From: a bacterium
GTDB taxonomy: Bacteria > Zhuqueibacterota > Zhuqueibacteria > Residuimicrobiales > Krinioviventaceae
Reading direction: 5' to 3'
Assembly (NCBI GenBank): GCA_963693055.1
Contig: OY843751.1
Location: 2,016,001-2,080,000 of the forward strand
Length of the DNA stretch: 64,000 nt
The notes beneath the pieces were generated by a model, which worked only from the letters and a program-made list of their open reading frames with translations, had not been told where the DNA came from and made no database searches. Numbering within the stretch: the first letter of the stretch is position 1; each line of letters starts with the position of its first letter. Positions 38,781 through 57,687 of the stretch are shown here, piece after piece. A program made the translations under genes and the position numbers.

Positions 38781-39914
38781 ATGTCCGAAAACAAAATGCC
38801 AGAGAATGGCCCTGTTTCAGAACAGCAATTGCAAAATTCAGAATTACAGGCCCTTTTAAATTTCCAAACTGAGATTTTCAATTCATTGCCTGCCCACCTT
38901 GTTGTTATTGATGACGAGTATAATATTTTAAATTACAATCAATCTGTTGCTAATATGGCACAAGGCAAGAGTGTTGTTGGCAAGAATCTTTTTGTTTCAT
39001 TAGATTTTTACCAATCCGAAGCTTTGAACAAAGTTTTGACTGATTTTATTAATAGCAATAGAACAGTCATTCATGTAACTTTGGATCATCCACACAAAAT
39101 GGGTGAAAAATATATCCATTCCATATCCCGATTAAAGGATATTGCGGGTCTTAAAGCTTTTTTGCTGCACTCGACATTGTATGATGGCAAAGAAGGCGAT
39201 CAGCTAAATGATTTTATTCAGGATAAATTTACCAGTTTGGGAGCTTTTGCCGGTAAAATAGCGCATGATATAAATAATCCGCTATCAGTGATTCTTACAC
39301 GAATCGACTTTTTACAATCTATGGATCTGGAAAATGCCATAGAAGAAGGTGATGTTGAGATTGTTGAAGAAATTGGCATTATTCAACGTCAGGCGCAGAG
39401 AATTTATGATATTCTGGATAAAATTGGTGCATTACAGATGCATGCAAAAGAAACACCGGTAGAATGTGATGTAACTGAAATTGTAACTCGAGCTGTTACC
39501 ATTGCTGAATTTCAGCGTCCCTTTAAAACCGTGCATGCTGTAAAAGAGCTGACAGAAGGTTTACCCCGAATGGTTTGTAATGAAATAAAACTTGAGCGGG
39601 CCATCAATGAAATGTTGAGAAATGCATTTGAAGCAGTTGGCGAACAAGGGGATGTATCCATTAAATTGACCTTTGAAGAACCTGAATATCGTCTTGAAAT
39701 TAAAGACAGTGGCCTTGGAATACCACCCGAAAATATCGGCAAGGTTTTTGATCCGTTTTTTACTACCAAACAAGGTGTAAAAGGCGCGGGTTTGGGATTA
39801 ACAATAGCATATGCTGCCGCACTTGCACATAATGGTCGTATTGAAATAAATAGTGTTCCCAAATCAGGTACAACCATGACCCTGATTTTAAGACGGAACT
39901 CAGTTAATGAATAA
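38781..39914 (+). CDS. Cytoplasmic PAS sensor histidine kinase
   Basis: IAHDINNPL, NAFEA, DSGLGI, FDPFFTTK, GLGL. Confidence 0.9.
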   Translation: MSENKMPENGPVSEQQLQNSELQALLNFQTEIFNSLPAHLVVIDDEYNILNYNQSVANMAQGKSVVGKNLFVSLDFYQSEALNKVLTDFINSNRTVIHVTLDHPHKMGEKYIHSISRLKDIAGLKAFLLHSTLYDGKEGDQLNDFIQDKFTSLGAFAGKIAHDINNPLSVILTRIDFLQSMDLENAIEEGDVEIVEEIGIIQRQAQRIYDILDKIGALQMHAKETPVECDVTEIVTRAVTIAEFQRPFKTVHAVKELTEGLPRMVCNEIKLERAINEMLRNAFEAVGEQGDVSIKLTFEEPEYRLEIKDSGLGIPPENIGKVFDPFFTTKQGVKGAGLGLTIAYAAALAHNGRIEINSVPKSGTTMTLILRRNSVNE

Positions 39915-39950
39915 CCATCAGGTTTCTATAAATATAAAGGTTAATTGTAG

Positions 39951-41006
39951 ATGCCAACAGTAATAACCGATGATAAGCGAATTTCGGGTTTATTTTTAGA
40001 GCTGGATCCGCAGCAAGCCGTTGAATCATGCTCTGGCTCACTTGAAAATTGTGATTCACTATTGAGCGATATAAAACCCGGTATGTCTTTATCTGAAGCG
40101 TTAAGACGTCTTTGGAATGTTGATATAGAAGACATGTGCAATGATGCTTATCAGCATGGTCGTACTGCCAGTTATGAGATTCCAGTTCAGTGCAATACCG
40201 TTCTACATTGGTATTTAATAACTGTATCTCCACGTGTTAGCAATCAAAAAATAAATGGCGTATCTCTGAATGTTAGAGATAATACACTTGTAAAGCGAAA
40301 TGAACGTCAGTTATTGCTACACGATAAAATGGGAAATATTGCGCTGCTTGCTTCTCAGGTTGCACACAAACTCAATAATCCTTTGGCAGCGGTATTGAAT
40401 CATGTTGGAAGTTTACTGGTCACTGATTTGAGTGATGAGAATCTGTTCAAAGTCAAGAGTAAACTTGAGTTGATGCAGGAGCAGATTTACTCCATGTCTG
40501 TAATTACCAATGCACTGGTAGCATTCAGTAAAGAATCCGGAGTAAATTTTAGACCTTTGGATGTGAATGAGATTGTGCAAAAATCAGTTGAACTGTCTCA
40601 TTTACTTCAATTAAAAAGTAATATTACATATCATGTAACTTTGTTACCCGATTTACCCCAGGTGTTGGGAAATGAAATTACGCTTGAACAAAGTTTTATT
40701 AATATTATACGAAATGCCCTTGAAGCAATGCCGGATGGGGGAGAGTTTACAATTACCACCAATTTGGATCCGCTTTCGAATGATTATATTTGTATCTCTT
40801 TTCATGATACAGGGTTTGGTATTGAAAAACAAGATCTGGATCAGGTTTTTGATCCGTTTTTCAAAACCAAGGATGAAAATCATTCTGGTTTGGGTTTATC
40901 AATAAGCTATGGTATTATTGCAAATCACAACGGAAGTATTGAAATTAACAGTGAACCGGAAAATGGTACAAAGGTAACTGTACTTTTGCCGGTGAACCGT
41001 AAATAA
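39951..41006 (+). CDS. Second cytoplasmic histidine kinase
   Basis: VAHKLNNPL, NALEA, DTGFGI, FDPFFKTK, GLGL. Confidence 0.9.
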   Translation: MPTVITDDKRISGLFLELDPQQAVESCSGSLENCDSLLSDIKPGMSLSEALRRLWNVDIEDMCNDAYQHGRTASYEIPVQCNTVLHWYLITVSPRVSNQKINGVSLNVRDNTLVKRNERQLLLHDKMGNIALLASQVAHKLNNPLAAVLNHVGSLLVTDLSDENLFKVKSKLELMQEQIYSMSVITNALVAFSKESGVNFRPLDVNEIVQKSVELSHLLQLKSNITYHVTLLPDLPQVLGNEITLEQSFINIIRNALEAMPDGGEFTITTNLDPLSNDYICISFHDTGFGIEKQDLDQVFDPFFKTKDENHSGLGLSISYGIIANHNGSIEINSEPENGTKVTVLLPVNRK

Positions 41007-41026
41007 AATGTAAGAGGAATAAACAT

Positions 41027-42457
41027 ATGAGTGATATCAACAACTCGGATTCTAACAAGTTGTTAATAATTGATGATGATAAAAGCGTATTAGATTCCAT
41101 TGTATCTTTACTTAAAAATTCAAACTATCAATGTTTAACTGCACCTTCAACCGCTACCGGTGTGAATCTTATTAAATCGGAACAGCCTTTGGTTGTTTTG
41201 ACTGATCTGAAAATGGAAAGAGATTCTTCGGGTATTGAAGTGCTAGAGGAAGCAAAAAAAATTGATCCTGAACTGGTGGTTATTCTTTATACAGCGTATG
41301 GTAATGTACCTGCAGCTGTTGATGCATTTAAAAAAGGTGCTTTTGATTTTATACAAAAAGTTCAAACTCACCATGATATTCTGGTACCCATTGATCGTGC
41401 TTTTAAATTTGCACGTATTCAGCGTGAAAATGCGTTTTTACGCAGTAGAGTAGATCTAACGGATGACGGCAGTTTTTATGGTGCAGTGGGTACAAGCCCC
41501 ACTATTCGTGAGGTTTTTGAAACAGTTAAACGCGTTGCTCGTACCAACGCAACAGTTATGATTACCGGTGAAACCGGTACTGGTAAAGAGGTAATTGCTC
41601 GAGGGTTGCATTATCACAGTCCACGTCAAAGCGAATCATTTGTTCCTGTAGCTGTTGGAACATTGCCGGATAATCTGTTAGAAGGCGAATTGTTTGGCCA
41701 TGTTAAAGGCGCTTATACTGGTGCAACTACAGACAAGCCCGGACTGTTTGAAGCTGCAGATAAGGGCACAATCATGCTTGATGAGATTGGCGAAGTCAGT
41801 ATAGAAATGCAGCACAAGTTGCTGCGGGTTATTCAGGAACGAACTGTAAGAAGATTGGGTAGTGTTAAAGAACGTGATATTGATGTAAGAATTATCAGCG
41901 CAACCAACCGTGATCCTGAAGAATTGGTAAAAGCAGGCAAGTTACGTGAAGATCTTTTTTATCGATTAAATGTGATCCATATCCATATACCACCATTGCG
42001 CGAGCGCAAAGAAGATATACCTATTCTTGCTTATCATTTCCTTAAAAAATATCGGGATATTGGTGTAGTAGAAGTTGAAAAGATTTCAAATGAAACATTA
42101 CTTTTGTTACAGGAATATGAATGGCCAGGAAATGTAAGACAGTTACAGGGAACTATGGAGAGAATGGTAGCGCTTGCCGGCAGACCAGAACTCCGCCCTG
42201 AAGATTTACCAGATAAAATCCGCCCTACAACCAAACGTGTTTATGTGGATACAAATGAAGAGTTGGATTTTAAAACTGCCAAAGCTCGCATTACCGAAGC
42301 ATTTGAAAAACAATATATTGAAAATTTATTGGACAAGTATAATAACAATATTACAAAGGTAGCGGATGCGGCGGGTTTGAATAGAAAAACTATATATCGT
42401 TTAATTGACTCCCGGAATATTAAATTCAGAGGAGTACGTGATGAGGATGACGACTAG
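41027..42457 (+). CDS. NtrC-family sigma54-dependent response regulator
   Basis: Receiver (IIDDD, TDLKM); GETGTGKE; ELFGHVKGAYTGA; LDEIGE; WPGNVRQL; Fis-type HTH. Confidence 0.95.
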   Translation: MSDINNSDSNKLLIIDDDKSVLDSIVSLLKNSNYQCLTAPSTATGVNLIKSEQPLVVLTDLKMERDSSGIEVLEEAKKIDPELVVILYTAYGNVPAAVDAFKKGAFDFIQKVQTHHDILVPIDRAFKFARIQRENAFLRSRVDLTDDGSFYGAVGTSPTIREVFETVKRVARTNATVMITGETGTGKEVIARGLHYHSPRQSESFVPVAVGTLPDNLLEGELFGHVKGAYTGATTDKPGLFEAADKGTIMLDEIGEVSIEMQHKLLRVIQERTVRRLGSVKERDIDVRIISATNRDPEELVKAGKLREDLFYRLNVIHIHIPPLRERKEDIPILAYHFLKKYRDIGVVEVEKISNETLLLLQEYEWPGNVRQLQGTMERMVALAGRPELRPEDLPDKIRPTTKRVYVDTNEELDFKTAKARITEAFEKQYIENLLDKYNNNITKVADAAGLNRKTIYRLIDSRNIKFRGVRDEDDD

Positions 42458-42655
42458 TTGATATAACAACGGGGGATTATACCGCATTAGATACCCAAGG
42501 GATATGTACTTTACACCACAGTTTCTTTTCAAGAGTGGCCTGAGGGCAACACATCTCGTCTTTAAAAAATGACTTTTTTGTACATATAAAATATTATTTA
42601 CTTGTAAGTTTTTGTTTTTATTGTGTTTAATATTATGGTCTTTTAGTGCCATTTA

Positions 42656-42672
42656 CTGGCATGAAACTTGTA
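42656..42672 (+). promoter_or_regulatory. Candidate sigma54 promoter (variant -12)
   Basis: CTGGCATGAAACTTGTA = GG-N10-GT, about 55 nt upstream of ATG 42726. Confidence 0.5.
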
Positions 42673-42725
42673 CTGGCAGTAATAGAAAAATTAAAGACCA
42701 TTCACTAAACAGGGTGTATGACGGG

Positions 42726-43148
42726 ATGATGAAAGAAAATATTAAACTAAAAAAAGCCAAATTGATCCTCGTTGGAACGATCGATTTTGGTGTTGTTGAA
42801 GGTCTTAAAGAACGTATGAAAGGTGCCAATTACGAGGTACATTTCGTTCAAAAAGGTATCAGCGTATTATCAGAAATTTTGGATAATGATGTTGATTTAC
42901 TTATACTTGATCTTGAACTTGCAGGAATTATGGGTGTTGAAATTCTTCCTGTAATACGACGTTTGCGTCCACGTTTACCTGTAATATTGATTACAGATGA
43001 TTTTACAAATCGAGTACGCAAAGTAGCCGCTGAACTTGGCATTACTTATCAGGCAAGTAAGCCTATGTCACCAAATGAAACTGAAGCTATTATATCTGCA
43101 ACTGAAAGTATTGTTGAAAAAAGCGCGCTCAACACATTAGCTATATAA
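42726..43148 (+). CDS. Stand-alone, atypical response-regulator receiver
   Basis: DLLILDLEL...G..IL, PVILIT, SKP; N-terminal acidic pair degenerate. Confidence 0.8.
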   Translation: MMKENIKLKKAKLILVGTIDFGVVEGLKERMKGANYEVHFVQKGISVLSEILDNDVDLLILDLELAGIMGVEILPVIRRLRPRLPVILITDDFTNRVRKVAAELGITYQASKPMSPNETEAIISATESIVEKSALNTLAI

Positions 43149-43162
43149 TTATTTAGAATTAA

Positions 43163-43214
43163 TAAGCCACCGGAAAAATTTTGTATTCCAGATTTTGCCG
43201 GTGGCTTTTTTTTT
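43163..43214 (+). terminator. Intrinsic terminator
   Basis: AAGCCACCGG...CCGGTGGCTT followed by a T-run. Confidence 0.8.
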
Positions 43215-43396
43215 GTTTCCCCCATAAATTATTTCATCCCCCAGGTTTAAATTCAAGTGTTGTGACATACAGTCAACAGTATTTCATATATGTCCATTGT
43301 AATAACCAATTAGTAAACGAATATGTAGTTTATTTGATACCATTATTTAAGATTGAAAGTAACAATGACATTTTCGCACTATATTAAGTCTATAAA

Positions 43397-43474
43397 AAAC
43401 AAGTATTTGAAATTTTTATTTTTGCGGCTTTTTGAATTGGCAATCATTTTAGATTTTTTGGCATAAACTCTGCT
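43397..43474 (+). promoter_or_regulatory. sigma54 promoter with upstream IHF-like site
   Basis: TTGGCATAAACTCTGCT (GG 43460-61, GC 43472-73, N10 spacing); AAACAAGTATTTG at 43397-43409 resembles WATCAANNNNTTR. Confidence 0.7.
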
Positions 43475-43533
43475 TTAGCAAGGGTAGAAAATAAATAAGA
43501 TACAAGAAATGAAGATTTTTGAGGAGAGAAGTA

Positions 43534-44823
43534 ATGAAATATAATCAACGCAAATTTAACCGAATGAAACAGAATAGACGCGTTTTCAGTCTGTTTGTTC
43601 AGGCTCATTCTACGGTTCTCTCTTTTTTATTTGTGTTATTCTTTTTTACTCAGGTATATGCAGCCGGTTCTCTTGTAGCAAGCTGGAGCCCCAATGCTGA
43701 ATCAGATCTCGCAGGATACAAAATTTATTATGGCACTACATCCGGTGATCAGACAAACTGGCAAATGGTAGATGTTGGTGATGTCAATCGTCATGTATTT
43801 CATGATCTGGTTGCAGGAGATACTTATTATATGGTTGTTACTGCATATGACTGGGCAGGAAATGAGAGTGAACCTTCAACTGAAGCAACCGCTGTTGCAA
43901 CTAATCGAGATGTAACAATTGCATATACTGAAGATAACGGTTTGGTTATTACTTGGGATGCTGTAAGTGGTGCAACTGCATATGAGATTTATAAAAGCTC
44001 AAGCGCATATTTTACACCAACTACGCCTTTAACTACTGTAACAGGTACACAGTATACAGATAGTAATTTTTCACGAGAAGCTGATACTGGATCATATTAT
44101 ATAATTACAGCTAAAGCTAATGAAACAGAATTGTTTACTTTTTCTACAATTGGTGCTTTAAATATAAAGTTGAACGGTGCCAAAAATCTGGTATCTGTTC
44201 CTTTTATTACATCTGATTCAACTTTATCAACAGTTTTAGGTACCCAACTTACTGGTAGCAGTTTTTCAAGTCAAGCTGACCGTGTTAGAGTTTGGAACGG
44301 AAGTGAATATGAAATGGCATGGTTGGTTGATGGAACCGGTACAGATTATGATGGTAAATGGTTTCGAAAAGCTGGCGATATGGAATCACCTATCAGACTT
44401 GTACCTCAACAGGCTTTTTGGATTGAACTGGTAAATCCGGTTCCAACCGATTCTGTAGTAACAGTTGCTGGCAGAGTTGCTGAAGATGCTAGTTATACAT
44501 ATCAATTAAATAGTGGTCCTAACTTTGTTGGTTCGTATTATCCATCAGATATAACTTTGGCTAACACCAATTTAGGACTCAGTGGAGCAGTAACCGGTGG
44601 TTTGAATGGTGCTGTCTCTGATAAAATTATGCATTGGCGTAATGTTAATGACTTTGACGTGGCCTGGCTTGTAGCTGGTTCAGGAACGAGCTGGGACGGG
44701 GAGTGGGTGAATGAGCGAGGTGATGCTCTTTCTAATATGACTTTCAAGGCAGGCCACGGTTATATTATTATGATTAAAAATGACAATACAACCCGTAACT
44801 GGCAGTTACCGAAACCCAATTGA
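43534..44823 (+). CDS. Secreted FN3-domain protein with duplicated C-terminal beta domain
   Basis: W.PN.ESDLAGYKIYYG...VTAYD..GNES FN3; internal repeat L..G.N.V...AD.V..W....AWLV.G.G...DG.W. Confidence 0.8.
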   Translation: MKYNQRKFNRMKQNRRVFSLFVQAHSTVLSFLFVLFFFTQVYAAGSLVASWSPNAESDLAGYKIYYGTTSGDQTNWQMVDVGDVNRHVFHDLVAGDTYYMVVTAYDWAGNESEPSTEATAVATNRDVTIAYTEDNGLVITWDAVSGATAYEIYKSSSAYFTPTTPLTTVTGTQYTDSNFSREADTGSYYIITAKANETELFTFSTIGALNIKLNGAKNLVSVPFITSDSTLSTVLGTQLTGSSFSSQADRVRVWNGSEYEMAWLVDGTGTDYDGKWFRKAGDMESPIRLVPQQAFWIELVNPVPTDSVVTVAGRVAEDASYTYQLNSGPNFVGSYYPSDITLANTNLGLSGAVTGGLNGAVSDKIMHWRNVNDFDVAWLVAGSGTSWDGEWVNERGDALSNMTFKAGHGYIIMIKNDNTTRNWQLPKPN

Positions 44824-44856
44824 TCTTGGGACGAGATGTTAAAAGGAGTAATTGTG

Positions 44857-45918
44857 ATGAACAAAGCTTATACGATTATATTAGTAATATTTTTAACCAT
44901 GCTGGTTGTAACGGTACAGGCCGGAACATTGGAAGCTTTTTCCGATGAAGGTTGTGTTGATGTTAACGGTTCTACCTATCTTGTTGGAAGCAACAGTAGT
45001 GGTGACCTTGTACAATTGATCTGGACCGGTCCTGATGGTAAAATTAACGAAGCTGATGATATGGGCAATGCAACCGGTGATGATGTAGTTATCGATTCAA
45101 CTTATATCGGTTATGGAACTTTACCAGGCGTGTCTGCAAACGGTCGTTTTGGAAAAACATTTACCCATGATCTTTTAGCAGCATCCTATACGGTTTATAT
45201 CCGTACATGGAACGCTCCAACAATTACCGGCTTGACAGATGCTTATGGTAATTCTCCAATACGGACTATGCAAAGCGATATTGACCATTTCAATTGCGGC
45301 GCAGTTCGATGTATTGAACGTACAAGTACACCTGTAGAATTGACCAGTTTCACCGTTAATTCTGAACCCGGAAAAATGGTTTTGAATTGGGTAACCCAGT
45401 CTGAAACTGAAAACCTTGGATTTTACATCTACCGTAGTGAAACTATAGATGGTGAACGTGTAAATGTGACTGAATCCATGATTAGTGGTGCAATTAACGC
45501 ACAATCCCGAAATGATTACAGTTGGATTGATAATGGCGTTGAAGATGGTGTTGTATACTATTACTGGCTGGTGGATGTGGCTACAACTGGTGAAACTAAT
45601 TTTTCAGATTCTCAAAAAGCAATTGGTATTGCCAAACCCGATCACTATGAATTGAGCCAGAATTATCCGAATCCATTTAATCCCAGAACCACGATTAAGT
45701 ATACACTCAAAGATGACGGTCATGTAGAGCTCGCTATCTTTAATATACGTGGTCAACTGGTACGCAGTCTGGTAAGCAGTGAACAATCAGCTGGCGTTTA
45801 TTCAATGATGTGGGATGCCAAAGATGACAATGGTGTTTCATTACCAAGCGGAATCTATTTTTACAGAATACGTTCTAACGAGTTTGAATCTATTAAAAAG
45901 ATGTCCTTGACCAAGTAA
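44857..45918 (+). CDS. Secreted protein with PVELTSF linker, FN3-like domain and FlgD-Ig/T9SS-type C-terminal domain
   Basis: Signal peptide; TPVELTSF; W.TQSETENLGF; QNYPNPFNP...KKMSLTK. Confidence 0.85.
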   Translation: MNKAYTIILVIFLTMLVVTVQAGTLEAFSDEGCVDVNGSTYLVGSNSSGDLVQLIWTGPDGKINEADDMGNATGDDVVIDSTYIGYGTLPGVSANGRFGKTFTHDLLAASYTVYIRTWNAPTITGLTDAYGNSPIRTMQSDIDHFNCGAVRCIERTSTPVELTSFTVNSEPGKMVLNWVTQSETENLGFYIYRSETIDGERVNVTESMISGAINAQSRNDYSWIDNGVEDGVVYYYWLVDVATTGETNFSDSQKAIGIAKPDHYELSQNYPNPFNPRTTIKYTLKDDGHVELAIFNIRGQLVRSLVSSEQSAGVYSMMWDAKDDNGVSLPSGIYFYRIRSNEFESIKKMSLTK

Positions 45919-45931
45919 CAGGTCTTGGGCA

Positions 45932-45968
45932 TTTTTACTAAAAATTTTTACTAAATTTTTTTACTAAA
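45932..45968 (+). repeat. Three direct repeats TTTTTACTAAA at 13-bp period
   Basis: Copies at 45932, 45945 and 45958, upstream of wza. Confidence 0.7.
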
Positions 45969-45994
45969 TAATTTATTATTAAGCGGAATCGAAA

Positions 45995-46753
45995 ATGAAA
46001 ACAGTACGAAATACAATCTCTCTTACCTTGACCCTGATGCTTTTGAGCGTATTGACAGCGTGTTCTGTAAATCCTCCGGCAAATCCTCAACAGGAAAAGG
46101 TACAGGGAAAACATCGTACAGTTTTTAAAATGAAGGCTCCGCAGAATAATATTACAGAGTCCACATCCTACCGTTTAGGATATGGAGACAGCATTGAAAT
46201 AAAGTTTTTTAACAATCCGGAATACAACGAAACAATTACAGTGCGCCCTGATGGCCGAATCAGCTTGCAGCGGGTTGGTGATATATTTGTTATCCAGATG
46301 ACTCCAGCAGAATTGGATGACATTATTACACAAACTTATAGCGAAATTCTGATTAATCCCGATGTTACCGTTTTTGTACGGGAGTTTGGCGGCCAGGATG
46401 TATACGTAATGGGTGAAGTTGAAAATCCGGGAGTATTCAAAGTAACAAAAGGTATGACCATGTTAAGGGCTATCGCCGCGGCAGGCGGGCCCAAGGGTGG
46501 TGCGGAGTTGGGTAGTGTCTTACTTATCCGCAATGACGGACATAGTCGTGGTGAGGCTGTACGGGTGGATTTAGCATTGTCAACATTGCGTAAAAATCTC
46601 AATTATGATTTACCTGTTCAATCCTATGATGTCGTTTTTGTACCACGAACGTTTATTGCGGATGTCAATTCTTTTGTAACACAGTTATATGATATTGCAC
46701 TACCGCCATTCGACATTTGGTCCAGATATAATTACTGGTATGGCTCAAAGTAA
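45995..46753 (+). CDS. wza: Polysaccharide export outer-membrane lipoprotein (Wza-like)
   Basis: Lipobox LTAC; YRLG.GD, VRPDGRISL, V.GEV..PG, AIAAAGG. Confidence 0.9.
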   Translation: MKTVRNTISLTLTLMLLSVLTACSVNPPANPQQEKVQGKHRTVFKMKAPQNNITESTSYRLGYGDSIEIKFFNNPEYNETITVRPDGRISLQRVGDIFVIQMTPAELDDIITQTYSEILINPDVTVFVREFGGQDVYVMGEVENPGVFKVTKGMTMLRAIAAAGGPKGGAELGSVLLIRNDGHSRGEAVRVDLALSTLRKNLNYDLPVQSYDVVFVPRTFIADVNSFVTQLYDIALPPFDIWSRYNYWYGSK

Positions 46754-46785
46754 CAGTTATTTGATCACTAAATAGGATTGACAAC

Positions 46786-48312: not shown

Positions 48313-48335
48313 TTAAAACCTTTTTGGAGGAAAAA

Positions 48336-48548
48336 ATGAGAAATCAATTGAAAATTAAAAGATGGGAAGCCGGATTAAAACAATATGAACTGGCATTTCT
48401 GCTGGGTTGCAGCTCTACATATCTTTCAATGGTAGAGAATAACCGAATTGAAGCAACTGTAGAATTTAAACGCAAAGTTTCAGAGATTTTTAATGTCAGT
48501 ATTGGCGAGATTTTCCATGAAAATATCAATACAACGGCAATGGCTTAA
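48336..48548 (+). CDS. XRE/Cro HTH protein
   Basis: R...GLKQ.ELA..LG.S..YLS.VEN. Confidence 0.85.
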   Translation: MRNQLKIKRWEAGLKQYELAFLLGCSSTYLSMVENNRIEATVEFKRKVSEIFNVSIGEIFHENINTTAMA

Positions 48549-48579
48549 TTGGATATTATAATTGAATAATGGAATGGCC

Positions 48580-49566
48580 ATGTATACTAAATATTTTAAA
48601 TTAAAAGAAGAACCTTTTACAACTACTCCGGATCCCCGCTTTTTATATGAAAGCGAAATGCATCAGGAAGCACTTGATCGCCTGATGATGGGTATAACCA
48701 GCAGACGCGGTATTAATGCTATTGTTGCTGAACCCGGTTTAGGTAAAAGCACAATCATCAGAACACTTTTGAACGGTTTAAATAAAAAAGTCCATTTTGC
48801 CTGGGTATTCAATACCACGATGGATATAAAAAATCTGATCAAATACATTTGTCAGGATTTTGGTTTTAAACCCAAGAGTGATGATTTGAGTGAAATTCTT
48901 TTAGAGTTTTATACCTTTTTGGTTAACGACTATCAAAAAGGGAATATACCCCTGTTAATAATTGATGAAGCACAAAACTTAAAGGCAGATGTGCTTGAAG
49001 AGATCCGTCAGCTTTCGAATCTGGAAACCATGCAGAATAAATTATTACAAATCATTCTGTCTGGCCAACCTCAACTCGATGTTATATTAGATTCTCCGGA
49101 ATTGCAGCAATTAAAACAGCGGATATCCTTAAAAGCCATTCTTCGTCGTTTGGATTATAATGATACCGTTCAATATATACAGCATCGTTTAAAGGTTGCC
49201 GGCGCAAAACGTGATGATATTTTTACCGAAGCGTCTATGAAAATGATCAAAAAGATTTCCGATGGTGTACCCAGACTGATAAACCAGGTGTGTGATAACG
49301 CACTCATGCTTGCGGCCCGTCGTGAAATGAAAAAAGTAGATTCCATTTTAATTGCAGAATTGTTTGAAAAAGGCATGGTTATGGCCGCTGGTCCTGAACC
49401 CGTAAGCTCTCGTTCAAATTATACTGCACTCAAGCAACGTAAACAAGTAGAGACTGAAAATTTACACCCACATCCCCAAACGACAGTTAAACCGCTTCCC
49501 AATATTATGGAATCGATTTCAGATGAATTTGGTGGATTGGACCTGAACCGATTAACAATAAACTGA
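48580..49566 (+). CDS. ExeA/GspA-family AAA+ ATPase
   Basis: F.L.E.PF..TPDPRFLY, PGLGKST, IIDEAQNL, GQPQL, GVPRLIN..CDNAL. Confidence 0.9.
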   Translation: MYTKYFKLKEEPFTTTPDPRFLYESEMHQEALDRLMMGITSRRGINAIVAEPGLGKSTIIRTLLNGLNKKVHFAWVFNTTMDIKNLIKYICQDFGFKPKSDDLSEILLEFYTFLVNDYQKGNIPLLIIDEAQNLKADVLEEIRQLSNLETMQNKLLQIILSGQPQLDVILDSPELQQLKQRISLKAILRRLDYNDTVQYIQHRLKVAGAKRDDIFTEASMKMIKKISDGVPRLINQVCDNALMLAARREMKKVDSILIAELFEKGMVMAAGPEPVSSRSNYTALKQRKQVETENLHPHPQTTVKPLPNIMESISDEFGGLDLNRLTIN

Positions 49567-49583
49567 TTTTTTGAGGTGCTAGA

Positions 49584-50477
49584 ATGAGCGTTGTCCATGA
49601 ATTGTTGTGTCAGATCGAAGAAAAGGAAAATTTACAATATTTCCGTCAGCCTGCCCCTGTAGAGACCACTACAGATAATGGTTTATTTGTATTTGATCTG
49701 CCAAAAGAGATCATAAATGATTTTTACGGTCTCAAAGAATATGTCCGTATCGCCAATCGTGGTGGCAACGTTCGGGTTTTGTCTATTACAAGTTCTACTT
49801 ATGGTGAAGGTGCTTCTACCATAGCTACTTATCTAAGTTTTTTAATGGCCGGTGGTCTTGTAAAGCAACCGGCGGTTCCTGCTGCACAACAGGAAAACAA
49901 TTCACTGTTTAATGACAGTTTGCGAGCACTAGTAAATCACAATCGTAAATCTAATGTTGTTCCCATGGATAACGAATCCTCAAACTCGAGATTTTCAAAC
50001 AGAGATGATATATTACTCATCGATGCAAATCTTGAACAGCCCGGTCTGCACCGGTATTTCGGATTACCCGATGAGATGGGCCTGGGCGAAATTATTGAAC
50101 AAAATCAAGACTGGAAAGAATATGTCCGGTCTGTTGATAATAGTAATTTAAAGATCATCACTGCGGGCAGTGCTGAATCTAAATCCATCGAATTGTTAAG
50201 CTCTGACAGGTTTCGCGCTCTGGTACGTCAGTGGCGTAACACTTTTAAATATGTAATTATTGATACACCCCCGGTATTGAACTCTATTGAATCTCTTAGT
50301 ATTGCGTCAGTATCTGATGGTGTAATTCTTATAGTTTGTGCCGGACAAACCCGCTGGGAAAACGCACAAACCGCAAAAATGAAATTAATGTCTGCTAAAG
50401 CCAATGTGCTGGGAGTTGCCCTTAATCGCCGCAAGATGGATATTCCTGATGGACTATATAAACGACTGGTTTCTTAG
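49584..50477 (+). CDS. CpsD/CapB-like BY-kinase homolog with degenerate Walker A
   Basis: SSTYGEGAST (Lys replaced by Ala), LLIDAN, VIIDTPP, DGVILIV. Confidence 0.85.
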   Translation: MSVVHELLCQIEEKENLQYFRQPAPVETTTDNGLFVFDLPKEIINDFYGLKEYVRIANRGGNVRVLSITSSTYGEGASTIATYLSFLMAGGLVKQPAVPAAQQENNSLFNDSLRALVNHNRKSNVVPMDNESSNSRFSNRDDILLIDANLEQPGLHRYFGLPDEMGLGEIIEQNQDWKEYVRSVDNSNLKIITAGSAESKSIELLSSDRFRALVRQWRNTFKYVIIDTPPVLNSIESLSIASVSDGVILIVCAGQTRWENAQTAKMKLMSAKANVLGVALNRRKMDIPDGLYKRLVS

Positions 50478-50482
50478 GGGGA

Positions 50483-51973
50483 ATGGTGGCATCGGCTTCT
50501 CAAAATGTCTATTCTTCCCGGAATAATCCGGTTCCAATACTCATTGCAGTTGCATTACTTGGAGCAATTCTTTCCGTATGGGCTGTTTGGGCCCTTGATT
50601 TTAAATGGGCAGTTTTTACGGTAATGGGTGTTTTGTTTCCGTTTGCTATGGCAATAGTAGGCAAAGCAAGACGTTTTGTGCTGGCTTTATTGGTTTTTAC
50701 AATTCCCCTGAATATCGATTATAATATTTTGTTTCACCCCAGTCCCGGTGGTGCGAATGCGTTTACCATTGGTTTGACTGATATTTTTCTGTTTGTATTG
50801 ATTTGTATTACCCTTGTAAATCTGTTAAAATATAAGCATGAAATTCATTTTTCTTTTTTTCCTGTAATATCATTACCCGTTTTAGGATTATTCGTATTTT
50901 ACCTGATATCCATGATCAACGCCCGCGACTTGTTGTGGAGCGCTTTTGATATGTTCAGTTTGTTCAAAGTCTGGTTGTTTTTTCTTTTTGTTGCCAATAA
51001 TCTGGAAAATAAAAGCGATGTGAAACTGGTTATTGCGGCATTGTCTTTCGGTTTATTATTACAGGCCTTTTTTGTAACCCTCCAGTTTTTTAATGGACAA
51101 AGTATGCTCAATATGCTGGGTCTTGGAGCGTCATCTAAAATGCTGGCTTTTGAGATGCAGTCTTCCATGGTGAACCGACCGGGTGGTACCGTTGGGCATT
51201 GTAATCACCTTGCCCGATATATTGGCTTGTTATTGCCTTTGACACTGGTGCTTGCCCTGGTAAGTTATCGCCGGTCATGGCGTTGGTTCATGTCTATTGT
51301 TACACTAGCGGGTGTGATTGCCATGATCTTTACACTGACACGTAGTTCATGGATCGGTTTGTTGGGATCTGTGATGGTTATGGTGCCGGTTATGTTTGTT
51401 TGGCGACTTGTTAATTTTAGAACCATAACAGCCATGTTTGCTGTTTCTATTTTGTTCCTGTTGGTCATTTTTGCATTCAAAGATGTGATATGGGGACGAA
51501 TAACTTCTGATGACCTGGGTTCAGCAAAAACCCGTTTAACCACTGCCAAAGTTGCGTTTAATATAATCAAAGATCATCCTTTTATTGGCGTTGGAATCAA
51601 TAATTATGGTTCTGTTCTTGAACAATATTGGGATGCTGAAGATACATTTACCCGCAGAGCGGCTGTACATAATACCTATTTATTGTATATGGCTGAAATT
51701 GGACTGCTTGGATTTGCAGTTTATCTGTGGCTGCTTGTTGCTTTTTTTGCAAGAATAAAAACTGCAATTAAAAGTAGAATTAAATATTTTTCTGCTGTTG
51801 CAATTGGAATTTTGGGAAGCTTTATTGGATTTTTAATTATGGCATTTCCTGACAAGAGTTACAAGGAAAACATAACACTTTTGCTTGTGTTTTTTACTCT
51901 GGCCGCTATAATTGAAGGTATGAATCGAATTTCATCGCAAAATGAAATGACTCATGTTTTAGCAGAGAGATAA
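50483..51973 (+). CDS. O-antigen ligase/Wzy polymerase family membrane protein
   Basis: R..GT.GH.N.LA, T.TRS.W, HPFIGVG.NNY, VHNTYL...AE.G..G. Confidence 0.88.
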   Translation: MVASASQNVYSSRNNPVPILIAVALLGAILSVWAVWALDFKWAVFTVMGVLFPFAMAIVGKARRFVLALLVFTIPLNIDYNILFHPSPGGANAFTIGLTDIFLFVLICITLVNLLKYKHEIHFSFFPVISLPVLGLFVFYLISMINARDLLWSAFDMFSLFKVWLFFLFVANNLENKSDVKLVIAALSFGLLLQAFFVTLQFFNGQSMLNMLGLGASSKMLAFEMQSSMVNRPGGTVGHCNHLARYIGLLLPLTLVLALVSYRRSWRWFMSIVTLAGVIAMIFTLTRSSWIGLLGSVMVMVPVMFVWRLVNFRTITAMFAVSILFLLVIFAFKDVIWGRITSDDLGSAKTRLTTAKVAFNIIKDHPFIGVGINNYGSVLEQYWDAEDTFTRRAAVHNTYLLYMAEIGLLGFAVYLWLLVAFFARIKTAIKSRIKYFSAVAIGILGSFIGFLIMAFPDKSYKENITLLLVFFTLAAIIEGMNRISSQNEMTHVLAER

Positions 51974-51977
51974 TTGA

Positions 51978-52778
51978 ATGACTTCTCAAGACATTGCAGG
52001 CTTTATTGGTAATAGCAGTCTTTTAAGACGTTTGGCTTTTATTGCAGTTCATTTGACAACTTTGCGTGAATGGTATTTACGTAAAGTATTGAAACAAACT
52101 TTGAAAAAATCTTTTGCCTTTCTTGATGCCGGAAGTGGAATGGGGCAACATGCAGTTTGGATTGCTGAAAATTATCCACAATCTCAGGTTTTGGGAATTG
52201 ATACAGATAGCAGACAAATTGAGGATTGCCGACGTTTTGCCAAAAGAAACCATATCCCCAATCTGGCTTTTGAATCCGGTAGTCTTGATGAGGTAAAACT
52301 GGATACGGAATTTGACCATGTTCTTTGTGCAAGTGTTTTAGAACATATTGAGAACGATGATAAAGTTTTAAAATCTTTTCACAAAATTTTAAAACCCAAT
52401 GGTACTTTGATTGTTTATGTACCTGTCTCAGAAAAACGGGTTTTAAAAAGTTTGGAAAGAAAAATAAACAAAATGACAGAGCATGCAAATGCAAAATACC
52501 CGCATGAGCATGTGCGTTACTATAAACAAATAGAGTTGTTGGATAAATTAATGAAAAACGGCTTTAAAATTAAAACCAGTAAACAAACTTATGGCACATT
52601 TGGCAGATGGTCTTATGATATTGTTACTACTGTACAGTACAGTCGTTTTTTTAAATTGATTTTCCCTTTTTATTTTTTACTGGTGCATCCTTTTGTGATG
52701 TTCCTCATGTGGCTGGATATGCGTTCCGAAAACCTTGATGGGAATGGGTTATTGGTAGTGGCGGAAAAGGTGATATGA
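51978..52778 (+). CDS. Class I SAM-dependent methyltransferase
   Basis: LDAGSG.G, VLEHIE.D, LKPNG. Confidence 0.88.
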   Translation: MTSQDIAGFIGNSSLLRRLAFIAVHLTTLREWYLRKVLKQTLKKSFAFLDAGSGMGQHAVWIAENYPQSQVLGIDTDSRQIEDCRRFAKRNHIPNLAFESGSLDEVKLDTEFDHVLCASVLEHIENDDKVLKSFHKILKPNGTLIVYVPVSEKRVLKSLERKINKMTEHANAKYPHEHVRYYKQIELLDKLMKNGFKIKTSKQTYGTFGRWSYDIVTTVQYSRFFKLIFPFYFLLVHPFVMFLMWLDMRSENLDGNGLLVVAEKVI

Positions 52779-54202
52779 ATTATTTAAAATCGATAATTTC
52801 AAATACTGTTGCGCGAGGGTTAACCGAATTGGTGAACCGTGCAGGCGGTGCTGTGTTTTGGGTGATGGTGGCACGCTATCTCGGTATTTCAGGTTTAGGA
52901 ACGCTGGCCTATGCTTTATCCTTATTTTCTTTATTCTCTACCTTGTCATCTATGGGACTTGGTAGTGTAGCTGTTCGTGACATCGCCAAAGATAAAACCA
53001 AAGCGGGTGTTTACTTTGGGCAAGGCCTTTTGCTGGGTTTAGGGCTATCTATGCTTTTTGCCGGATTGATGATTACTACCAGTCTTGTATTGAAACCCGG
53101 AGAACACTCCATTTTTGCTTCTATTGCCATGGCTGTTGCAATTTTTCCGGCTTCCGGATTCTACTGGAGCAAAACCATGCTCAGTGCCGCAGAAAAGATG
53201 GGTTATATTGCCATTGCACGCGCACTTGAAAATAGTTTCAAAGTTATTGTTGGTTTGATCATGATTCTTTCAGGCGCCGGAATCAAAGAATTGGTGCTGG
53301 TTATTGTTTTCAGCAAAGTTGTTTCTTTTGCGGTTTGTTTTGCATTTGCTAGTGACAAAGTTGTTCGTCCAGTCTGGCGTTCAGACAAAGAGGTCTTGGG
53401 CCATTTGATCAAGCATGCCCCGTCATTTTCTCTTATTAATTTATTTAACAGTTTATTTTGGTCAATCTCTGTTTTATTACTAACGTCACTTCGTGGTGAA
53501 GCGGAAGCTGGTATTTTTAGTGCAGCTTTTAAATTGGTAGAGATATGTATAGCATTGGCGCTAGCATATGGGCAGGCATTTTTTCCGGTTATTTCCAGAA
53601 TTTCCCGAACTGAAAGAGAATTATTTCAACAGTTGTTCCAAAAGTCTATCAAATTTATTACCATTGCCACTCTGGCAGTTGCAGGAATTATGCAGGTCAT
53701 TGCACCCCAGTTGATTGTGCTTTTCTATGGCCCGGGTATGGACAGGGCAGTACCTGTATTGCAGGTTTTGATCTGGTTGATTGTACCTTTTGGTATTATA
53801 CCGGTAATGGCTTTTACGCTCATTAGTATTAATCAACAGAAATTTGACCTGGTTGCCAATATTTCCGGTACTATGATTCTATTTGTTATGAGCATGCTTA
53901 TTGTTCCGGTTTCGGGTGCTTTGGGTGCTGCAATTTCTATAGTCATTGCAGGATTTGTATTTTTGGCTGCCGAGTTGTTTGGCCTTTCCAGTAAATTCTT
54001 TCGCTTACAGAATGCTATAGAATGGCTTAAACCTCTGCCCGGTTTATTGTTGATGTGGAGTATTGCTTTTATATTAAAAGATTATCAGGTTTGGTTGTCT
54101 ATGTTCAGTGGTGCGGTTATGTATGTAATTTATTTGTGGTTGAGTAAAACAGTTACACAACCTGAAATTTTATACTTAAAAAAATGGGTTTCTGTCCGAT
54201 AA
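52775..54202 (+). CDS. wzx: Wzx flippase
   Basis: ARYLG, D/S.GL, G.FSAA, P..GALGAA; about 12-14 TM segments. Confidence 0.85.
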   Translation: MNYLKSIISNTVARGLTELVNRAGGAVFWVMVARYLGISGLGTLAYALSLFSLFSTLSSMGLGSVAVRDIAKDKTKAGVYFGQGLLLGLGLSMLFAGLMITTSLVLKPGEHSIFASIAMAVAIFPASGFYWSKTMLSAAEKMGYIAIARALENSFKVIVGLIMILSGAGIKELVLVIVFSKVVSFAVCFAFASDKVVRPVWRSDKEVLGHLIKHAPSFSLINLFNSLFWSISVLLLTSLRGEAEAGIFSAAFKLVEICIALALAYGQAFFPVISRISRTERELFQQLFQKSIKFITIATLAVAGIMQVIAPQLIVLFYGPGMDRAVPVLQVLIWLIVPFGIIPVMAFTLISINQQKFDLVANISGTMILFVMSMLIVPVSGALGAAISIVIAGFVFLAAELFGLSSKFFRLQNAIEWLKPLPGLLLMWSIAFILKDYQVWLSMFSGAVMYVIYLWLSKTVTQPEILYLKKWVSVR

Positions 54203-54212
54203 TAATAATGAG

Positions 54213-55205
54213 ATGATGAACGATAATGCTAAAATATTGCCCAGGATCTCTGTTATCATTCCGGTACGCAACCGGGATGATGTCATTCTAAGGACCCTGA
54301 ATGCACTTGAAAATCAGGATTATAACCAATCGCTGTATCAGGTGATTGTTGTGGATGATGCTTCGACAGATGAAACACTGGACCAGTTGATTGCTTTTTC
54401 GGCAGATACCCGAATAGATTTTATAATCATTCAGGGACCCGGTAAAGGTGCGGGATACGCTCGCAATCTTGCAATGGAACATGCCCAGGGCGAAATATTA
54501 TTATTTCTGGATGGTGATACAATCCCCGAACTGGATCTGGTGAGAAAACATGTTGAACTGCATGAACAGCATTATCATCCGGTGTGCATTATGGGACGAG
54601 TTGATATGTCACTCGAACTTGATATTCATCGTCAATACCGATTGTTTGATACAGAAATGCCTTTTCATTTTGATGAAATGCAGCGCGTAGATTGGCAAAT
54701 GTACCGGGCTGCAAATACTTCAATAACATGGTCTGCTATTCACAGTATTGGTGGTTTTGATCTGGAATTAAAAGCTGCTGAAGATACTGAATTGGCCTGG
54801 CGTTTGAATGATAAAGGGATTCCAATATATTATTATAATTCACTGGTTTGTATGCACCACCATCCCATTGATGTTGAAGGATATATGGAAAAAGGTGCCA
54901 TGTATGGACTTGCGGTAGGTGTCTGGTATCAAAAAGCGCCTGAAATTCGTCGTGAATTGGTATCCCGATATGGCGTTACCGCTCCGGAATTGACAGTATT
55001 TAGAAAGTTGAAACATACATTTAGAAGTGTTTTTATTAATCGATATACATTCCCTTTGATTGTTAAATCTGGCAAGCTGTTAAGAAAAATCTGGTTAAAG
55101 GGATCAGAAATTTTATTAAAGAGTGCTTTTCGGTTCAATACCCGAAAAGCTTTTGCAAATTATGTTTTTTCGAATACGGGTAATATAGCGGCGGGGAGGT
55201 CGTGA
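54213..55205 (+). CDS. Glycosyltransferase family 2
   Basis: SVIIP.RN, VVDDASTD, ARN, FLDGD, EDTEL. Confidence 0.92.
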   Translation: MMNDNAKILPRISVIIPVRNRDDVILRTLNALENQDYNQSLYQVIVVDDASTDETLDQLIAFSADTRIDFIIIQGPGKGAGYARNLAMEHAQGEILLFLDGDTIPELDLVRKHVELHEQHYHPVCIMGRVDMSLELDIHRQYRLFDTEMPFHFDEMQRVDWQMYRAANTSITWSAIHSIGGFDLELKAAEDTELAWRLNDKGIPIYYYNSLVCMHHHPIDVEGYMEKGAMYGLAVGVWYQKAPEIRRELVSRYGVTAPELTVFRKLKHTFRSVFINRYTFPLIVKSGKLLRKIWLKGSEILLKSAFRFNTRKAFANYVFSNTGNIAAGRS

Positions 55206-56461
55206 TGAGAGTATTAATGACCCATTGGAACTATGCACCGGAATTTTCAGGAGCTGCATTACAAGGACATCGGTTGTCTCTTGAGCTTATGAAACTTGGT
55301 ATAAAAGTAAATGTTTTGACCGGAACAGATAATCCGGATATGGTAGGAACTGACTATGTTGATGGTATCAAAGTCGTCAGGGTGTTGCGTGATAAATCAT
55401 CACGTTTGAAACATTTAAACTATGGCTGGGAAATGTTCAAACATGTATTACGCTTTCGCCATGAAGTGGATGTTGTTCATTCACATGGTTTTATTGCACC
55501 GGTAAATATTGCAGCCAAGCTTGCCAAATTGCCGGTTATTCAAAAAATTACCAACCTAAATGTTGATGATCCCATTACTGTGAGAAGACGTAAACTGGGA
55601 CATATACTGATCAAAATATTCAACTATTCACGTATTCTTGTTCCTACATCTCGTTTGCTGGAAAGAACCTGCAGACGTACTGATAATTCTCAACCCTTTT
55701 TCGCCAAAGTGTCTAATGGTGTTGATCCCAATCTGTTCAGGCCGGTTTCTGCTGATGAGAAAAAACAAATTAAACACCAGTTGGGTTTGCCTCGCAACCG
55801 TACAATTTTCCTTACGGTTGGTTCTGTTACCCATACAAAAGGATTGGATCTTTTGATCAATGCACTATATGAATTAAAACTTACGACATACGATGATTTT
55901 CTTTTATTGGTTATTGGGCCTAATCATTTGAGTAAAAGTTTTGGTTTGGGTGACGAACCTACCGATCCCTTTACCCGCAATCTCTTGCGTTCTATTAATG
56001 ATAAAGGTTTGTTTAAACATATAAAGTTTTTGGGAGTGCAGGCCAATATTCATGAATATATGCAGGCAGCCGATGTTTATATTCACTCAAGTCGTCAGGA
56101 AGGTCAGCCCAACGCTATATTGGAAGCCATGGCAAGTGCTATTCCGGTTGTTGCAAACCGTTTACCCGGTATAACCGATGAATTGCTGCAAAATGGACGT
56201 TATGGTTTTGTTGTAGATAGTGAAAATGATGTCGAGTTTGCTTCTGCCATCCGTGTATTGATGAAACATGAAAAAATACGTGGACGCATGGGAGCCTATT
56301 CACGTATAGAGATTTTGCAAAATTACAACCTTTGGAAGATCGCTGAAAAATATCGCTCATTATATTATAGCGTAGTTGATGAAGAAACGGTAGCAGAAGC
56401 GGGTATGCCGCAAGAAAATCAGTCTTTATTGTCAATATTGAACCATATTAAACACAAGTAA
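55202..56461 (+). CDS. Glycosyltransferase family 4
   Basis: NGVD, KGLD, EGQPNAILEAMA. Confidence 0.92.
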   Translation: MMRVLMTHWNYAPEFSGAALQGHRLSLELMKLGIKVNVLTGTDNPDMVGTDYVDGIKVVRVLRDKSSRLKHLNYGWEMFKHVLRFRHEVDVVHSHGFIAPVNIAAKLAKLPVIQKITNLNVDDPITVRRRKLGHILIKIFNYSRILVPTSRLLERTCRRTDNSQPFFAKVSNGVDPNLFRPVSADEKKQIKHQLGLPRNRTIFLTVGSVTHTKGLDLLINALYELKLTTYDDFLLLVIGPNHLSKSFGLGDEPTDPFTRNLLRSINDKGLFKHIKFLGVQANIHEYMQAADVYIHSSRQEGQPNAILEAMASAIPVVANRLPGITDELLQNGRYGFVVDSENDVEFASAIRVLMKHEKIRGRMGAYSRIEILQNYNLWKIAEKYRSLYYSVVDEETVAEAGMPQENQSLLSILNHIKHK

Positions 56462-56462
56462 T

Positions 56463-57143
56463 ATGGATCTGCAAGATCGTTTAGATAAACGTTTTTCACC
56501 GCAGGCTGTTGCATTCAAAAGAATCATCAGTAAAGTTGTACAGCCCATCAAGATTGAAAAAATTCTTGTTGTTGGTTGCGGCCGTGGATACGAAGCAATC
56601 AAATTACAAGAACTGTTTGGTGCAAAAGTTCATGGTGTTGATGTTGAACAGGAATTTGATGTCAGGGCTGAGCAATATGCACATTTGATCAACTATGATG
56701 GTGCAAACCTGCCTTTTACCGATAATCATTTTGACATTGTTTATTCATTCCATGTGCTTGAACATGTTAAAGTTGTGGATAATATGTTGTTTGAAATGAA
56801 ACGGGTGATAAATCCGGGAGGATGGGTTTATATAGGGGTTCCAAACCGTTCACGATTGTTTGGATATTTTGGGATGAAAGATAAATCATTTTCTCAAAAA
56901 TTAAAACAAAATTTGCATGACTGGCAGGCCCGTATTCAGGGCCGTTTTGAAAACCGTTATGGAGCTCATGCCGGGTTTTCAGATTCAGAATTAAAAAAGC
57001 TATTATTAAATCATTTTACCCATGTCGAAAATGTTACCGGATTGTATTATCAGAACAAACATAGTTATTTCAAGCTGTTGTTGCATTTACCCGGTTTCTC
57101 GAAATTTATTCTACCCTCTGTTTATTTTATTGCCTCAAAGTAA
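56463..57143 (+). CDS. Class I SAM-dependent methyltransferase
   Basis: VVGCGRG, LPF.D..FD.V, VLEHV, RVI.PGG. Confidence 0.88.
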   Translation: MDLQDRLDKRFSPQAVAFKRIISKVVQPIKIEKILVVGCGRGYEAIKLQELFGAKVHGVDVEQEFDVRAEQYAHLINYDGANLPFTDNHFDIVYSFHVLEHVKVVDNMLFEMKRVINPGGWVYIGVPNRSRLFGYFGMKDKSFSQKLKQNLHDWQARIQGRFENRYGAHAGFSDSELKKLLLNHFTHVENVTGLYYQNKHSYFKLLLHLPGFSKFILPSVYFIASK

Positions 57144-57252: not shown

Positions 57253-57666
57253 ATGAAACCGAAAATAATCATTGGCTTTGTTGTTATTCTGTTCGCTTTG
57301 GGATTTGTAATTATTGGTGGTCTCCAGGAAACAGCTGTGTATTATATGACCGTACCGGAATTGCATGCTAAATCTTTACCCGAAGGTGAAGGTGTTCGCA
57401 TAAGTGGATATGTAGATCCAGAATCCGTGCAATGGAACGCTAAAGATATTGAATTACGTTTCAGTATGTATGAAGAAAGTGATACATTGAGTGTTTATTA
57501 CAAGGGAGTCATACCTGATCAGATTTATGACGCGCAAATTGTTGTAGCAGAGGGAACTCTTGCAAATGACGGTTCTTTGGTTGCCAGCAAAATTTTACTC
57601 AAATGCCCTTCAAAGTATGAAACCGGGGACCCAGGAGAACATCTGGAAGCAAAAACACAGATATAA
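57253..57666 (+). CDS. ccmE: Heme chaperone CcmE, Cys variant
   Basis: YY.T..E, RISG.V, V.Y.G..PD, VVAEG, KCPSKY. Confidence 0.88.
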   Translation: MKPKIIIGFVVILFALGFVIIGGLQETAVYYMTVPELHAKSLPEGEGVRISGYVDPESVQWNAKDIELRFSMYEESDTLSVYYKGVIPDQIYDAQIVVAEGTLANDGSLVASKILLKCPSKYETGDPGEHLEAKTQI

Positions 57667-57687
57667 AGAATAATAAATATAATTTTC

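Follow-up and report, generated by a model that had tools for sequence, protein, structure and literature searches.

The locus described here lies in a stretch of 64,000 nucleotides (the window; assembly GCA_963693055.1, contig OY843751.1, positions 2,016,001 to 2,080,000) from a bacterium of the phylum KSB1 (GTDB Zhuqueibacterota), and comprises a gene cluster in which regulators, two secreted proteins and exopolysaccharide (EPS) genes follow one another. The source genome (G000) is a single contig and 100% complete. Based on the list of open reading frames (ORFs) and on family scans, the cluster runs on the + strand, as do all window features given below, from two kinases, an NtrC-type activator and a lone receiver through the secreted proteins, here named SecA and SecB, to wza, a GumC-type polysaccharide co-polymerase (PCP), XRE, an ExeA-type ATPase, a bacterial tyrosine kinase (BY-kinase) homologue, Wzy_C, a methyltransferase, wzx, the glycosyltransferases GT2 and GT4 and a second methyltransferase. 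This agrees with the genes and order given by a first-pass annotation made from the sequence. The locus extends beyond the window, which holds only its first, proximal half.

The first gene, HK1 (38781..39914), encodes a PAS-HisKA-HATPase histidine kinase with an intact H-box according to family scan and orthologue alignment, the His being followed by Asp or Glu in 14/15 orthologues. In the kinase-like HK2 (39951..41006), the H-box is degenerate, as among 17 aligned sequences one shows His plus an acidic residue, ten show His plus a non-acidic residue and six have no His. An acidic residue after the His is required for autokinase activity, and the alignment suggests that HK2 is likely a phosphatase or pseudokinase partner. 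Both proteins had been annotated as soluble histidine kinases; neither contains a hydrophobic segment, and for HK2 the degenerate H-box qualifies the kinase assignment. The NtrC-type sigma54 activator (41027..42457), with REC, AAA and Fis helix-turn-helix (HTH) domains, keeps its conserved motifs across orthologues. It shares the domain architecture of PrsR despite a score below the cut-off of the PrsR model TIGR02915 (368.8 bits, cut-off 502.6; AtoC and NtrC models score higher), and HK1 reaches 75.2 bits against the PrsK model TIGR02916 (cut-off 300). The stand-alone receiver (42726..43148) keeps the phospho-Asp and the Lys, and its N-terminal acidic pair is altered.

The cargo/EPS operon is preceded by a sigma54 -24/-12 promoter of the GG-N10-GC type (43459..43473), which the first-pass annotation had already noticed. 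In a scan of 21 orthologues, with three loci left out, a match was found 5' of 19 secA genes, and the box sits inside a conserved block amid otherwise divergent intergenic DNA. The gene rpoN, on which the first-pass reading depended, is present in G000. About 200 bp upstream of the promoter, intergenic conservation revealed a further block (43261..43321), a candidate upstream activating sequence (UAS), which is the sole intergenic copy among 16 motif matches genome-wide. A sigma54/UAS regulon covering other proteins with a secretion-type C-terminal domain (CTD) had been envisaged, and we rejected it: the candidate UAS accompanies 1/99 non-coding sigma54-like sites in G000, the genome-wide scan yielded no further site with it, and only 5/99 sites precede CTD genes. 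Having a single intergenic copy, the UAS therefore marks no scattered regulon, unlike the PEP-CTERM-associated box of Haft 2006 (PMC1569441), which sits ~63 nt upstream and recurs at many scattered genes. The sigma54 matrix was trained on the orthologous promoters, which makes it partly circular that this promoter ranks first; a sigma70 scan stayed at chance level (70 matches versus 66.6).

A second box, unreported by the first-pass annotation, is located 5' of the receiver gene (GG-N10-GT, 42657..42671) and was found in 13/18 orthologues, all with GT. Since this variant is also frequent before other genes of G000, the box at the receiver gene is not special. On the 3' side of the same gene, an inverted repeat with a T run (43164..43215) looks terminator-like in the sequence; it is not among the elements that a scan listed.

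SecA (43519..44823, probable start 43534) has a signal peptide, two fn3 domains and, at its C-terminus, a domain termed SAC (44149-44820), giving the architecture fn3-fn3-SAC without a CTD; SAC consists of two ~110-residue repeats that are 31% identical. SecB (44836..45918) combines a signal peptide with a domain termed SBN (44923-45324), an Ig-like spacer and a type IX secretion system (T9SS) CTD of the FlgD-Ig/type A class. This tail scores 39.3 bits against the type A model TIGR04183 (cut-off 23), in line with the FlgD-Ig/T9SS-type ending initially recognized. Judged from their sequences, SAC and SBN are two uncatalogued domains: no Pfam model fits SAC, sequence searches found no solved relative of either, and SAC is weakly TIGR02597-like (3/32 members, best E 1.1e-5). 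The fold predicted for SBN is confident (predicted local distance difference test, pLDDT, 96), and its fold matches are middling and prealbumin/CnaB-like; the top one is SlaB with a Z of 7.8 (root-mean-square deviation 3.2, 91 aligned), and a Z below 8 is nothing unusual in a search of this kind. In the fold search with SecA, the match list was filled by fn3.

[quoted passage not shown] These are the Wza/OPX lipoprotein (45995..46753), the GumC-type co-polymerase without a kinase domain or Tyr cluster (46786..48312), a small XRE-type HTH protein (48336..48548), the single-copy ExeA-type AAA ATPase with both Walker motifs intact (48562..49566), the BY-kinase homologue (49584..50477), a Wzy_C membrane protein that would act as polymerase or ligase (50483..51973), an S-adenosylmethionine (SAM) methyltransferase (51978..52778), the Wzx flippase (52775..54202), the GT2 (54213..55205) and GT4 (55202..56461) glycosyltransferases and another SAM methyltransferase (56463..57143), which is the last gene of the proximal half; the methyltransferases, glycosyltransferases, Wza and Wzx were assigned by family scan. 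For the ExeA-type ATPase, TIGR03015 is the sole family match (250.2 bits, cut-off 324.5).

The homology of the BY-kinase homologue was confirmed, whereas an active tyrosine kinase was not, because the Walker A Lys is found in 0/23 aligned sequences and no Tyr cluster is present on this protein or on the co-polymerase. BY pseudokinases have been described, and the window protein matches the description (PMC12004946). As in the pairs EpsV/EcpK of Myxococcus and HfsA/HfsB of Caulobacter, a stand-alone BY homologue without Lys and Tyr tail is encoded near a co-polymerase lacking a kinase domain. While EcpK is without all Walker motifs, the window protein retains the A' Asp and often also that of Walker B, and, unlike in those pairs, an intact ExeA-type ATPase gene lies here between co-polymerase and pseudokinase genes.

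No priming transferase was seen in either the window cluster or the gene lists of 15 downstream stretches. Four full-length copies of priming phosphoglycosyl transferases are present elsewhere in G000; in the related families f6 and f12 a priming transferase sits inside the cluster, and none does in the f1-f5 loci read. In Myxococcus, the lone receiver EpsW activates the priming transferase EpsZ (PMC12802240). The lone receiver of our locus is likewise tied to a Wzx/Wzy cluster, a resemblance that serves as a lead only, and differs in that the f1-f5 clusters carry no priming transferase of their own. A second polysaccharide cluster of G000 (C1:4537927-4550222) encodes an SLBB protein, a fused Wzc-like protein and a priming transferase, with a sigma54-like box upstream.

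Conservation was read in 24 loci, taken from 23 genomes that were picked for their long contigs. A core block of secA, secB, wza, PCP and XRE was found in 23/23 genomes, with insertions in some, and the full regulator block stands beside the cargo in 17/21 informative loci; two further loci have the receiver alone and two have neither. Regulators, cargo and EPS genes are thus co-conserved in relatives, as the first-pass annotation had expected. The cluster is single-copy and order-wide: across 167 genomes of the phylum, the SBN profile was positive in 43, namely G000 and 42/46 genomes of families f1-f6, and in none elsewhere. The XRE protein (70 residues) is the most conserved gene product of the operon, with 63-98% identity in f1-f6 and about 52% in f12. 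Individual loci deviate in detail. In family f4 (L049, L050, L051), secB and wza are separated by an inserted gene for a 1200-residue secreted protein that lacks a typical CTD; one relative carries a membrane glycosyltransferase-like gene between the receiver gene and secA (L046:4125-5468, G101); and in another (L041, G089) the ExeA-type ATPase and the GT2 each appear as two ORFs, possibly through decay or sequencing error.

The cluster continues downstream in 13/15 relatives read, with some variation, and this distal half holds an AMP-ligase, a UDP-sugar dehydrogenase, a GT4, a BNR-repeat lipoprotein, a PMT_2 protein (GT-C class), a C25 protein of 1600 residues and, at its end, a PorV-family protein of 340 residues. 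For the two relatives without the continuation (G081, G082), the C25 paralogue was located on other contigs. In G000, the distal half was located outside the window at C1:4294942-4307401 (L081), 2.2 Mb from the proximal half. The C25 protein, composed of propeptide, CARDB and CTD, is a PorU paralogue in which the catalytic His and Cys are kept in 16/16 aligned copies. As a pair, the two proteins stay below the PorU, PorU2 and PorV2 cut-offs; the PorV-like copy scores 90.2 and 95 against NF033709 (cut-off 90). The PorU paralogue occurs in 49/167 phylum genomes, including 42/46 of f1-f6, and its distribution tracks the SBN profile, which has the same count in these families. The ExeA and PorU paralogues occur together in 46 genomes. 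They lie on one strand and no more than 26 kb from each other in 23 of these, far apart on a single contig in two, and on separate contigs in 21. In the f12 genome G130, the layout from EPS genes to PorU is the same, but three other CTD proteins and a priming transferase stand at its head, which implies that the cargo slot varies yet keeps its CTD, while the sortase remains linked to the genes for the polysaccharide. In G000, a HisKA-only protein of 92 residues is also encoded between the GT-C gene and the PorU paralogue (L081:9825-10103, corresponding to C1:4300825-4301103).

Components of the T9SS were sought in G000, as the first-pass annotation had suggested. SprA was detected (PF14349 over cut-off, a frame of 2107 residues; present in 42/43 genomes of the order), as were 11 PorV-family matches. 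G000 encodes six full C25 domains, and a separate PorU-like gene lies near sprA; the cluster's paralogue is distinct from it (35-46% versus 24-29% identity). CTD matches number at least 150, or 238 with a locally built model. With more than 150 CTD proteins, SprA, PorV-family and C25 proteins but no GldL or GldM match in a search whose control was silent too, the genome possibly holds a motor-less T9SS, and two tandem, near-identical C25 genes (1362 and 1360 residues) were noted at C1:6251525-6259890. A T9SS is considered possible in several phyla of the Fibrobacterota-Chlorobiota-Bacteroidota (FCB) group, KSB1 not being named in the extract of that source (PMC11285876). So many CTD proteins next to one order-wide, single-copy cluster could mean that the cluster makes a general anchor polysaccharide and a general sortase for all CTD proteins of the genome. 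We regard this as very improbable, given that the PorU paralogue was not found (at E<=1e-150) in 118/167 phylum genomes, that the PorU-like gene near sprA is a separate one and that the candidate UAS is unique to the locus.

SBN directly follows SAC in 46/47 genes, the sole exception lying at a contig edge, and in f6 the SAC-SBN pair is doubled as a unit. SAC is C-terminal in 24/24 KSB1 copies scored and in 13/13 proteins from outside KSB1, while the cargo that bears it is varied and includes fn3 stalks, PKD, SprB-like repeats and GH15/GH65-family proteins; a Methanophagales protein has SAC and SBN fused in one chain. A profile search yielded 623 SBN-bearing representatives. By a rough sorting of the tails of the best 150 of these, 19 have a CTD, 15 a membrane tail, 3 a CFI-box, 64 another recurring tail and 49 other or partial tails; for a subset of 60 SBN proteins, the assignments to CTD, CFI-box and PEP-CTERM were verified. 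A metagenome scan with a narrow alignment of 6 SBN-PEP proteins, which covers the neighbourhoods of that subfamily only, gave 10 high-GC loci of one PEP-CTERM subfamily. In seven of them a SAC-ending gene lies directly 5' of SBN, and the other three have less than 300 bp of DNA upstream of SBN; 6/8 SBN proteins scanned in these loci exceed the PEP-CTERM cut-off. The tail on SBN has therefore been exchanged between lineages, with PEP-CTERM in place of the T9SS CTD. Leads on the origin of these loci point to Verrucomicrobiota and Kiritimatiellota. In some (L057:2611-2615, L061:773-777, L060, L064), the SBN-PEP-CTERM protein and a second SBN protein are split by one in-frame stop, whereas in L056 and L058 the same two SBN parts are fused with an internal PEP-CTERM, a possible mid-cut or read-through arrangement.

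Several of these features would also suit an S-layer-like glycoprotein system, in which the GT-C enzyme (PMT_2) or Wzy_C puts glycan on Ser/Thr of the cargo independently of CTD cleavage. PMT_2 is encoded in 12/13 distal halves (no orthologue was found in that of G101), Wzy_C weakly matches the XrtA-associated O-glycosylation ligase model (46.1 bits, cut-off 188), the cargo contains 18-19% Ser+Thr, and SlaB heads the fold matches of SBN, if only with an ordinary Z. However, the single Wzy_C gene is needed as polymerase and the PorU/PorV-like pair is left unexplained, and we consider this explanation improbable.

Among known systems, the cluster closely resembles the XrtA/PEP-CTERM loci with PrsK/PrsR, zooglan-type clusters among them (Haft 2006). 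Both have a sigma54 activator and a -24/-12 box before the cargo, an OPX protein, a chain-length protein, an ExeA-type ATPase, a BY-kinase homologue, Wzy_C and glycosyltransferases, and both place a C-terminal sorting signal and a processing enzyme within the cluster. Unlike XrtA loci, the cluster has CTD cargo and PorU/PorV-like genes without exosortase or PEP-CTERM, and its kinases are soluble, whereas PrsK is a transmembrane protein. The lack of both elements, first noted for the window, extends to the complete genome: no exosortase match at E<=0.1 (with a positive search control) and no PEP-CTERM match were obtained in G000. Exosortases over the cut-off were found in none of the f1-f6 genomes and in 16/167 genomes of the phylum. 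The PrsT tetratricopeptide-repeat lipoprotein is not annotated in the window locus; no genome search for it was made. That the cluster might be a true XrtA/PEP-CTERM system whose exosortase was missed or lost could be argued from the best NCBIfam matches of wza, PCP, ATPase, Wzy_C and GT4, which are all XrtA-system models, and from sporadic PEP-CTERM matches in 6/43 genomes of the order. Yet every one of those NCBIfam scores is under its cut-off, and with a complete genome free of exosortase and PEP-CTERM and with soluble kinases this idea is hardly credible. On its defining features the cluster falls outside XrtA/PEP-CTERM membership, yet it works like such a system, and the PorU/PorV-like pair would fill the role that exosortase has in XrtA loci.

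The attachment machinery itself is known from Bacteroidota T9SS, with which the cluster shares type A CTD cargo, SprA, PorV barrels and a C25 protein with His/Cys; there, PorU, PorV and the lipopolysaccharide A-LPS serve attachment. What sets our locus apart is the extra PorU/PorV pair inside a Wza-dependent polysaccharide cluster. It bears bona fide cargo signals of the T9SS and a paralogous pair for attachment. In our literature search, which left most subscription journals outside, no description was found of this cluster, of a T9SS in KSB1 or of PorU2/PorV2.

Taken together, we favour the view, likely on balance, that an inducible surface coat of protein and polysaccharide is built by this conserved cluster with its Wzx/Wzy pathway, the two secreted proteins and the additional PorU/PorV-like pair. 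The analogous surface-layer or biofilm system sorted by a T9SS-like CTD, as proposed in the first-pass annotation, gains support from the cluster's own PorU/PorV-like pair and from SBN carrying PEP-CTERM elsewhere. In such a system, HK1 would phosphorylate the NtrC-type activator, which would then bind the upstream block and open the sigma54 promoter; the signal would be tuned by HK2 and the lone receiver. Synthesis and export of a polymer would fall to the glycosyltransferases, Wzx, Wzy, Wza and the co-polymerase together with its pseudokinase, with priming left to a transferase encoded outside the cluster and export probably supported by the ExeA-type ATPase. SecB would exit through the genome's SprA pore by means of its CTD and be handed over by the cluster's PorV-like barrel, whereupon the PorU-like enzyme would cut the CTD and link SecB to the polymer of the cluster; the AMP ligase or the GT-C enzyme may build the linking sugar. 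This step follows the known chemistry of PorU, which cleaves the CTD and conjugates cargo to surface polysaccharide through linking sugars that vary between species (PMC11969387). SecA, without a CTD, would be held by its SAC domain binding SBN. Cohesin-dockerin-style display provides an analogy for this step. Gene content, synteny, promoter and motif conservation, the adjacency of SAC and SBN and the exchange of tails on SBN were observed directly in the sequences, whereas we infer expression, secretion, cleavage, the SAC-SBN contact and a covalent anchoring of SecB to this polysaccharide.

A number of observations weigh against this model. The halves are split in G000 and its nearest kin, and no sigma54 box of the pattern used was found 5' of the distal half in G000. 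The cluster's PorU-like protein scores 383.6 and 390 bits, below the PorU cut-off of 420. With a CTD on more than 150 proteins of G000, the CTD alone confers no specificity; for GldM and GldL there were no matches, but the search control was silent as well. In two f12 genomes (G131, G132), the PorU paralogue and an exosortase occur in the same genome. The compared genomes are kin rather than independent cases, and the counts consequently show inheritance as a unit, not independent events. Outside KSB1, the EPS gene set of the window had no matches on 10 short SAC-SBN contigs, and SAC is inside only 1 of the top 150 SBN proteins. Furthermore, the PorU acceptors described in the extract of the source cited above are of the lipopolysaccharide (LPS) type, while Wza/PCP export implies a capsule-type or secreted polymer.

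The last of these points, together with the split halves and the SAC-SBN pairs without visible EPS genes elsewhere, would suit an arrangement in which proteins and polymer share their regulation and come together non-covalently. The polymer would then be a capsule or EPS, and the PorU paralogue would do no more than remove the CTD or attach cargo to LPS. We judge this the less probable account, though one to be taken seriously, as it does not explain why an extra PorU/PorV pair is kept by the glycosyltransferases across f1-f6, with the PorU-like gene also in f12 next to other cargo, nor why that pair is retained although G000 has a separate PorU-like gene near sprA.

Beyond the coat itself, we tentatively suggest that KSB1 rebuilt a flocculation-type PEP-CTERM/exosortase system from T9SS parts, in which a private PorU/PorV pair joins the CTD anchor to a Wza-exported polymer, and that SBN-SAC is an undescribed, portable docking pair by which bacteria and archaea display enzymes and adhesins and which accepts any host tail, be it CTD, PEP-CTERM, CFI-box or archaeal-type. 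The role likely assigned here to a PorU-like sortase is the one that other bacteria are thought to give to exosortase, and the layout bears on two questions of the field, namely how PEP-CTERM proteins become attached to EPS and which function the ExeA-type ATPase has in such loci. Formerly soluble EPS becomes cell-bound through the action of an RpoN-dependent PEP-CTERM protein (PMC9850573), and a parallel model is drawn in the epsSMASH preprint (10.64898/2025.12.21.693542). As the same layout occurs here with a sortase of known chemistry, the cargo is predicted to be joined to the polymer by an amide link at its cut C-terminus. If true, T9SS sortases would extend from LPS to exported polysaccharide, paralogous PorU/PorV pairs could be dedicated to one cargo set, and SAC-SBN would represent a new module for protein display whose anchors can be exchanged. 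KSB1 reportedly makes up 3-10% of biofilm communities (PMC11683472), and with this abundance the cluster may be its matrix system.

Two further features of the genome were recorded. Following the last methyltransferase gene of the proximal half, a lone ccmE-like gene with a strong terminator (window positions 57253-57717) occupies a place where it was not seen in relatives, except possibly the nearest one. In addition, an identical 48-base stretch occurs at C1:1733452 and seven other places of G000, all 8 copies lying inside ORFs, and is probably the repeat of a mobile element.

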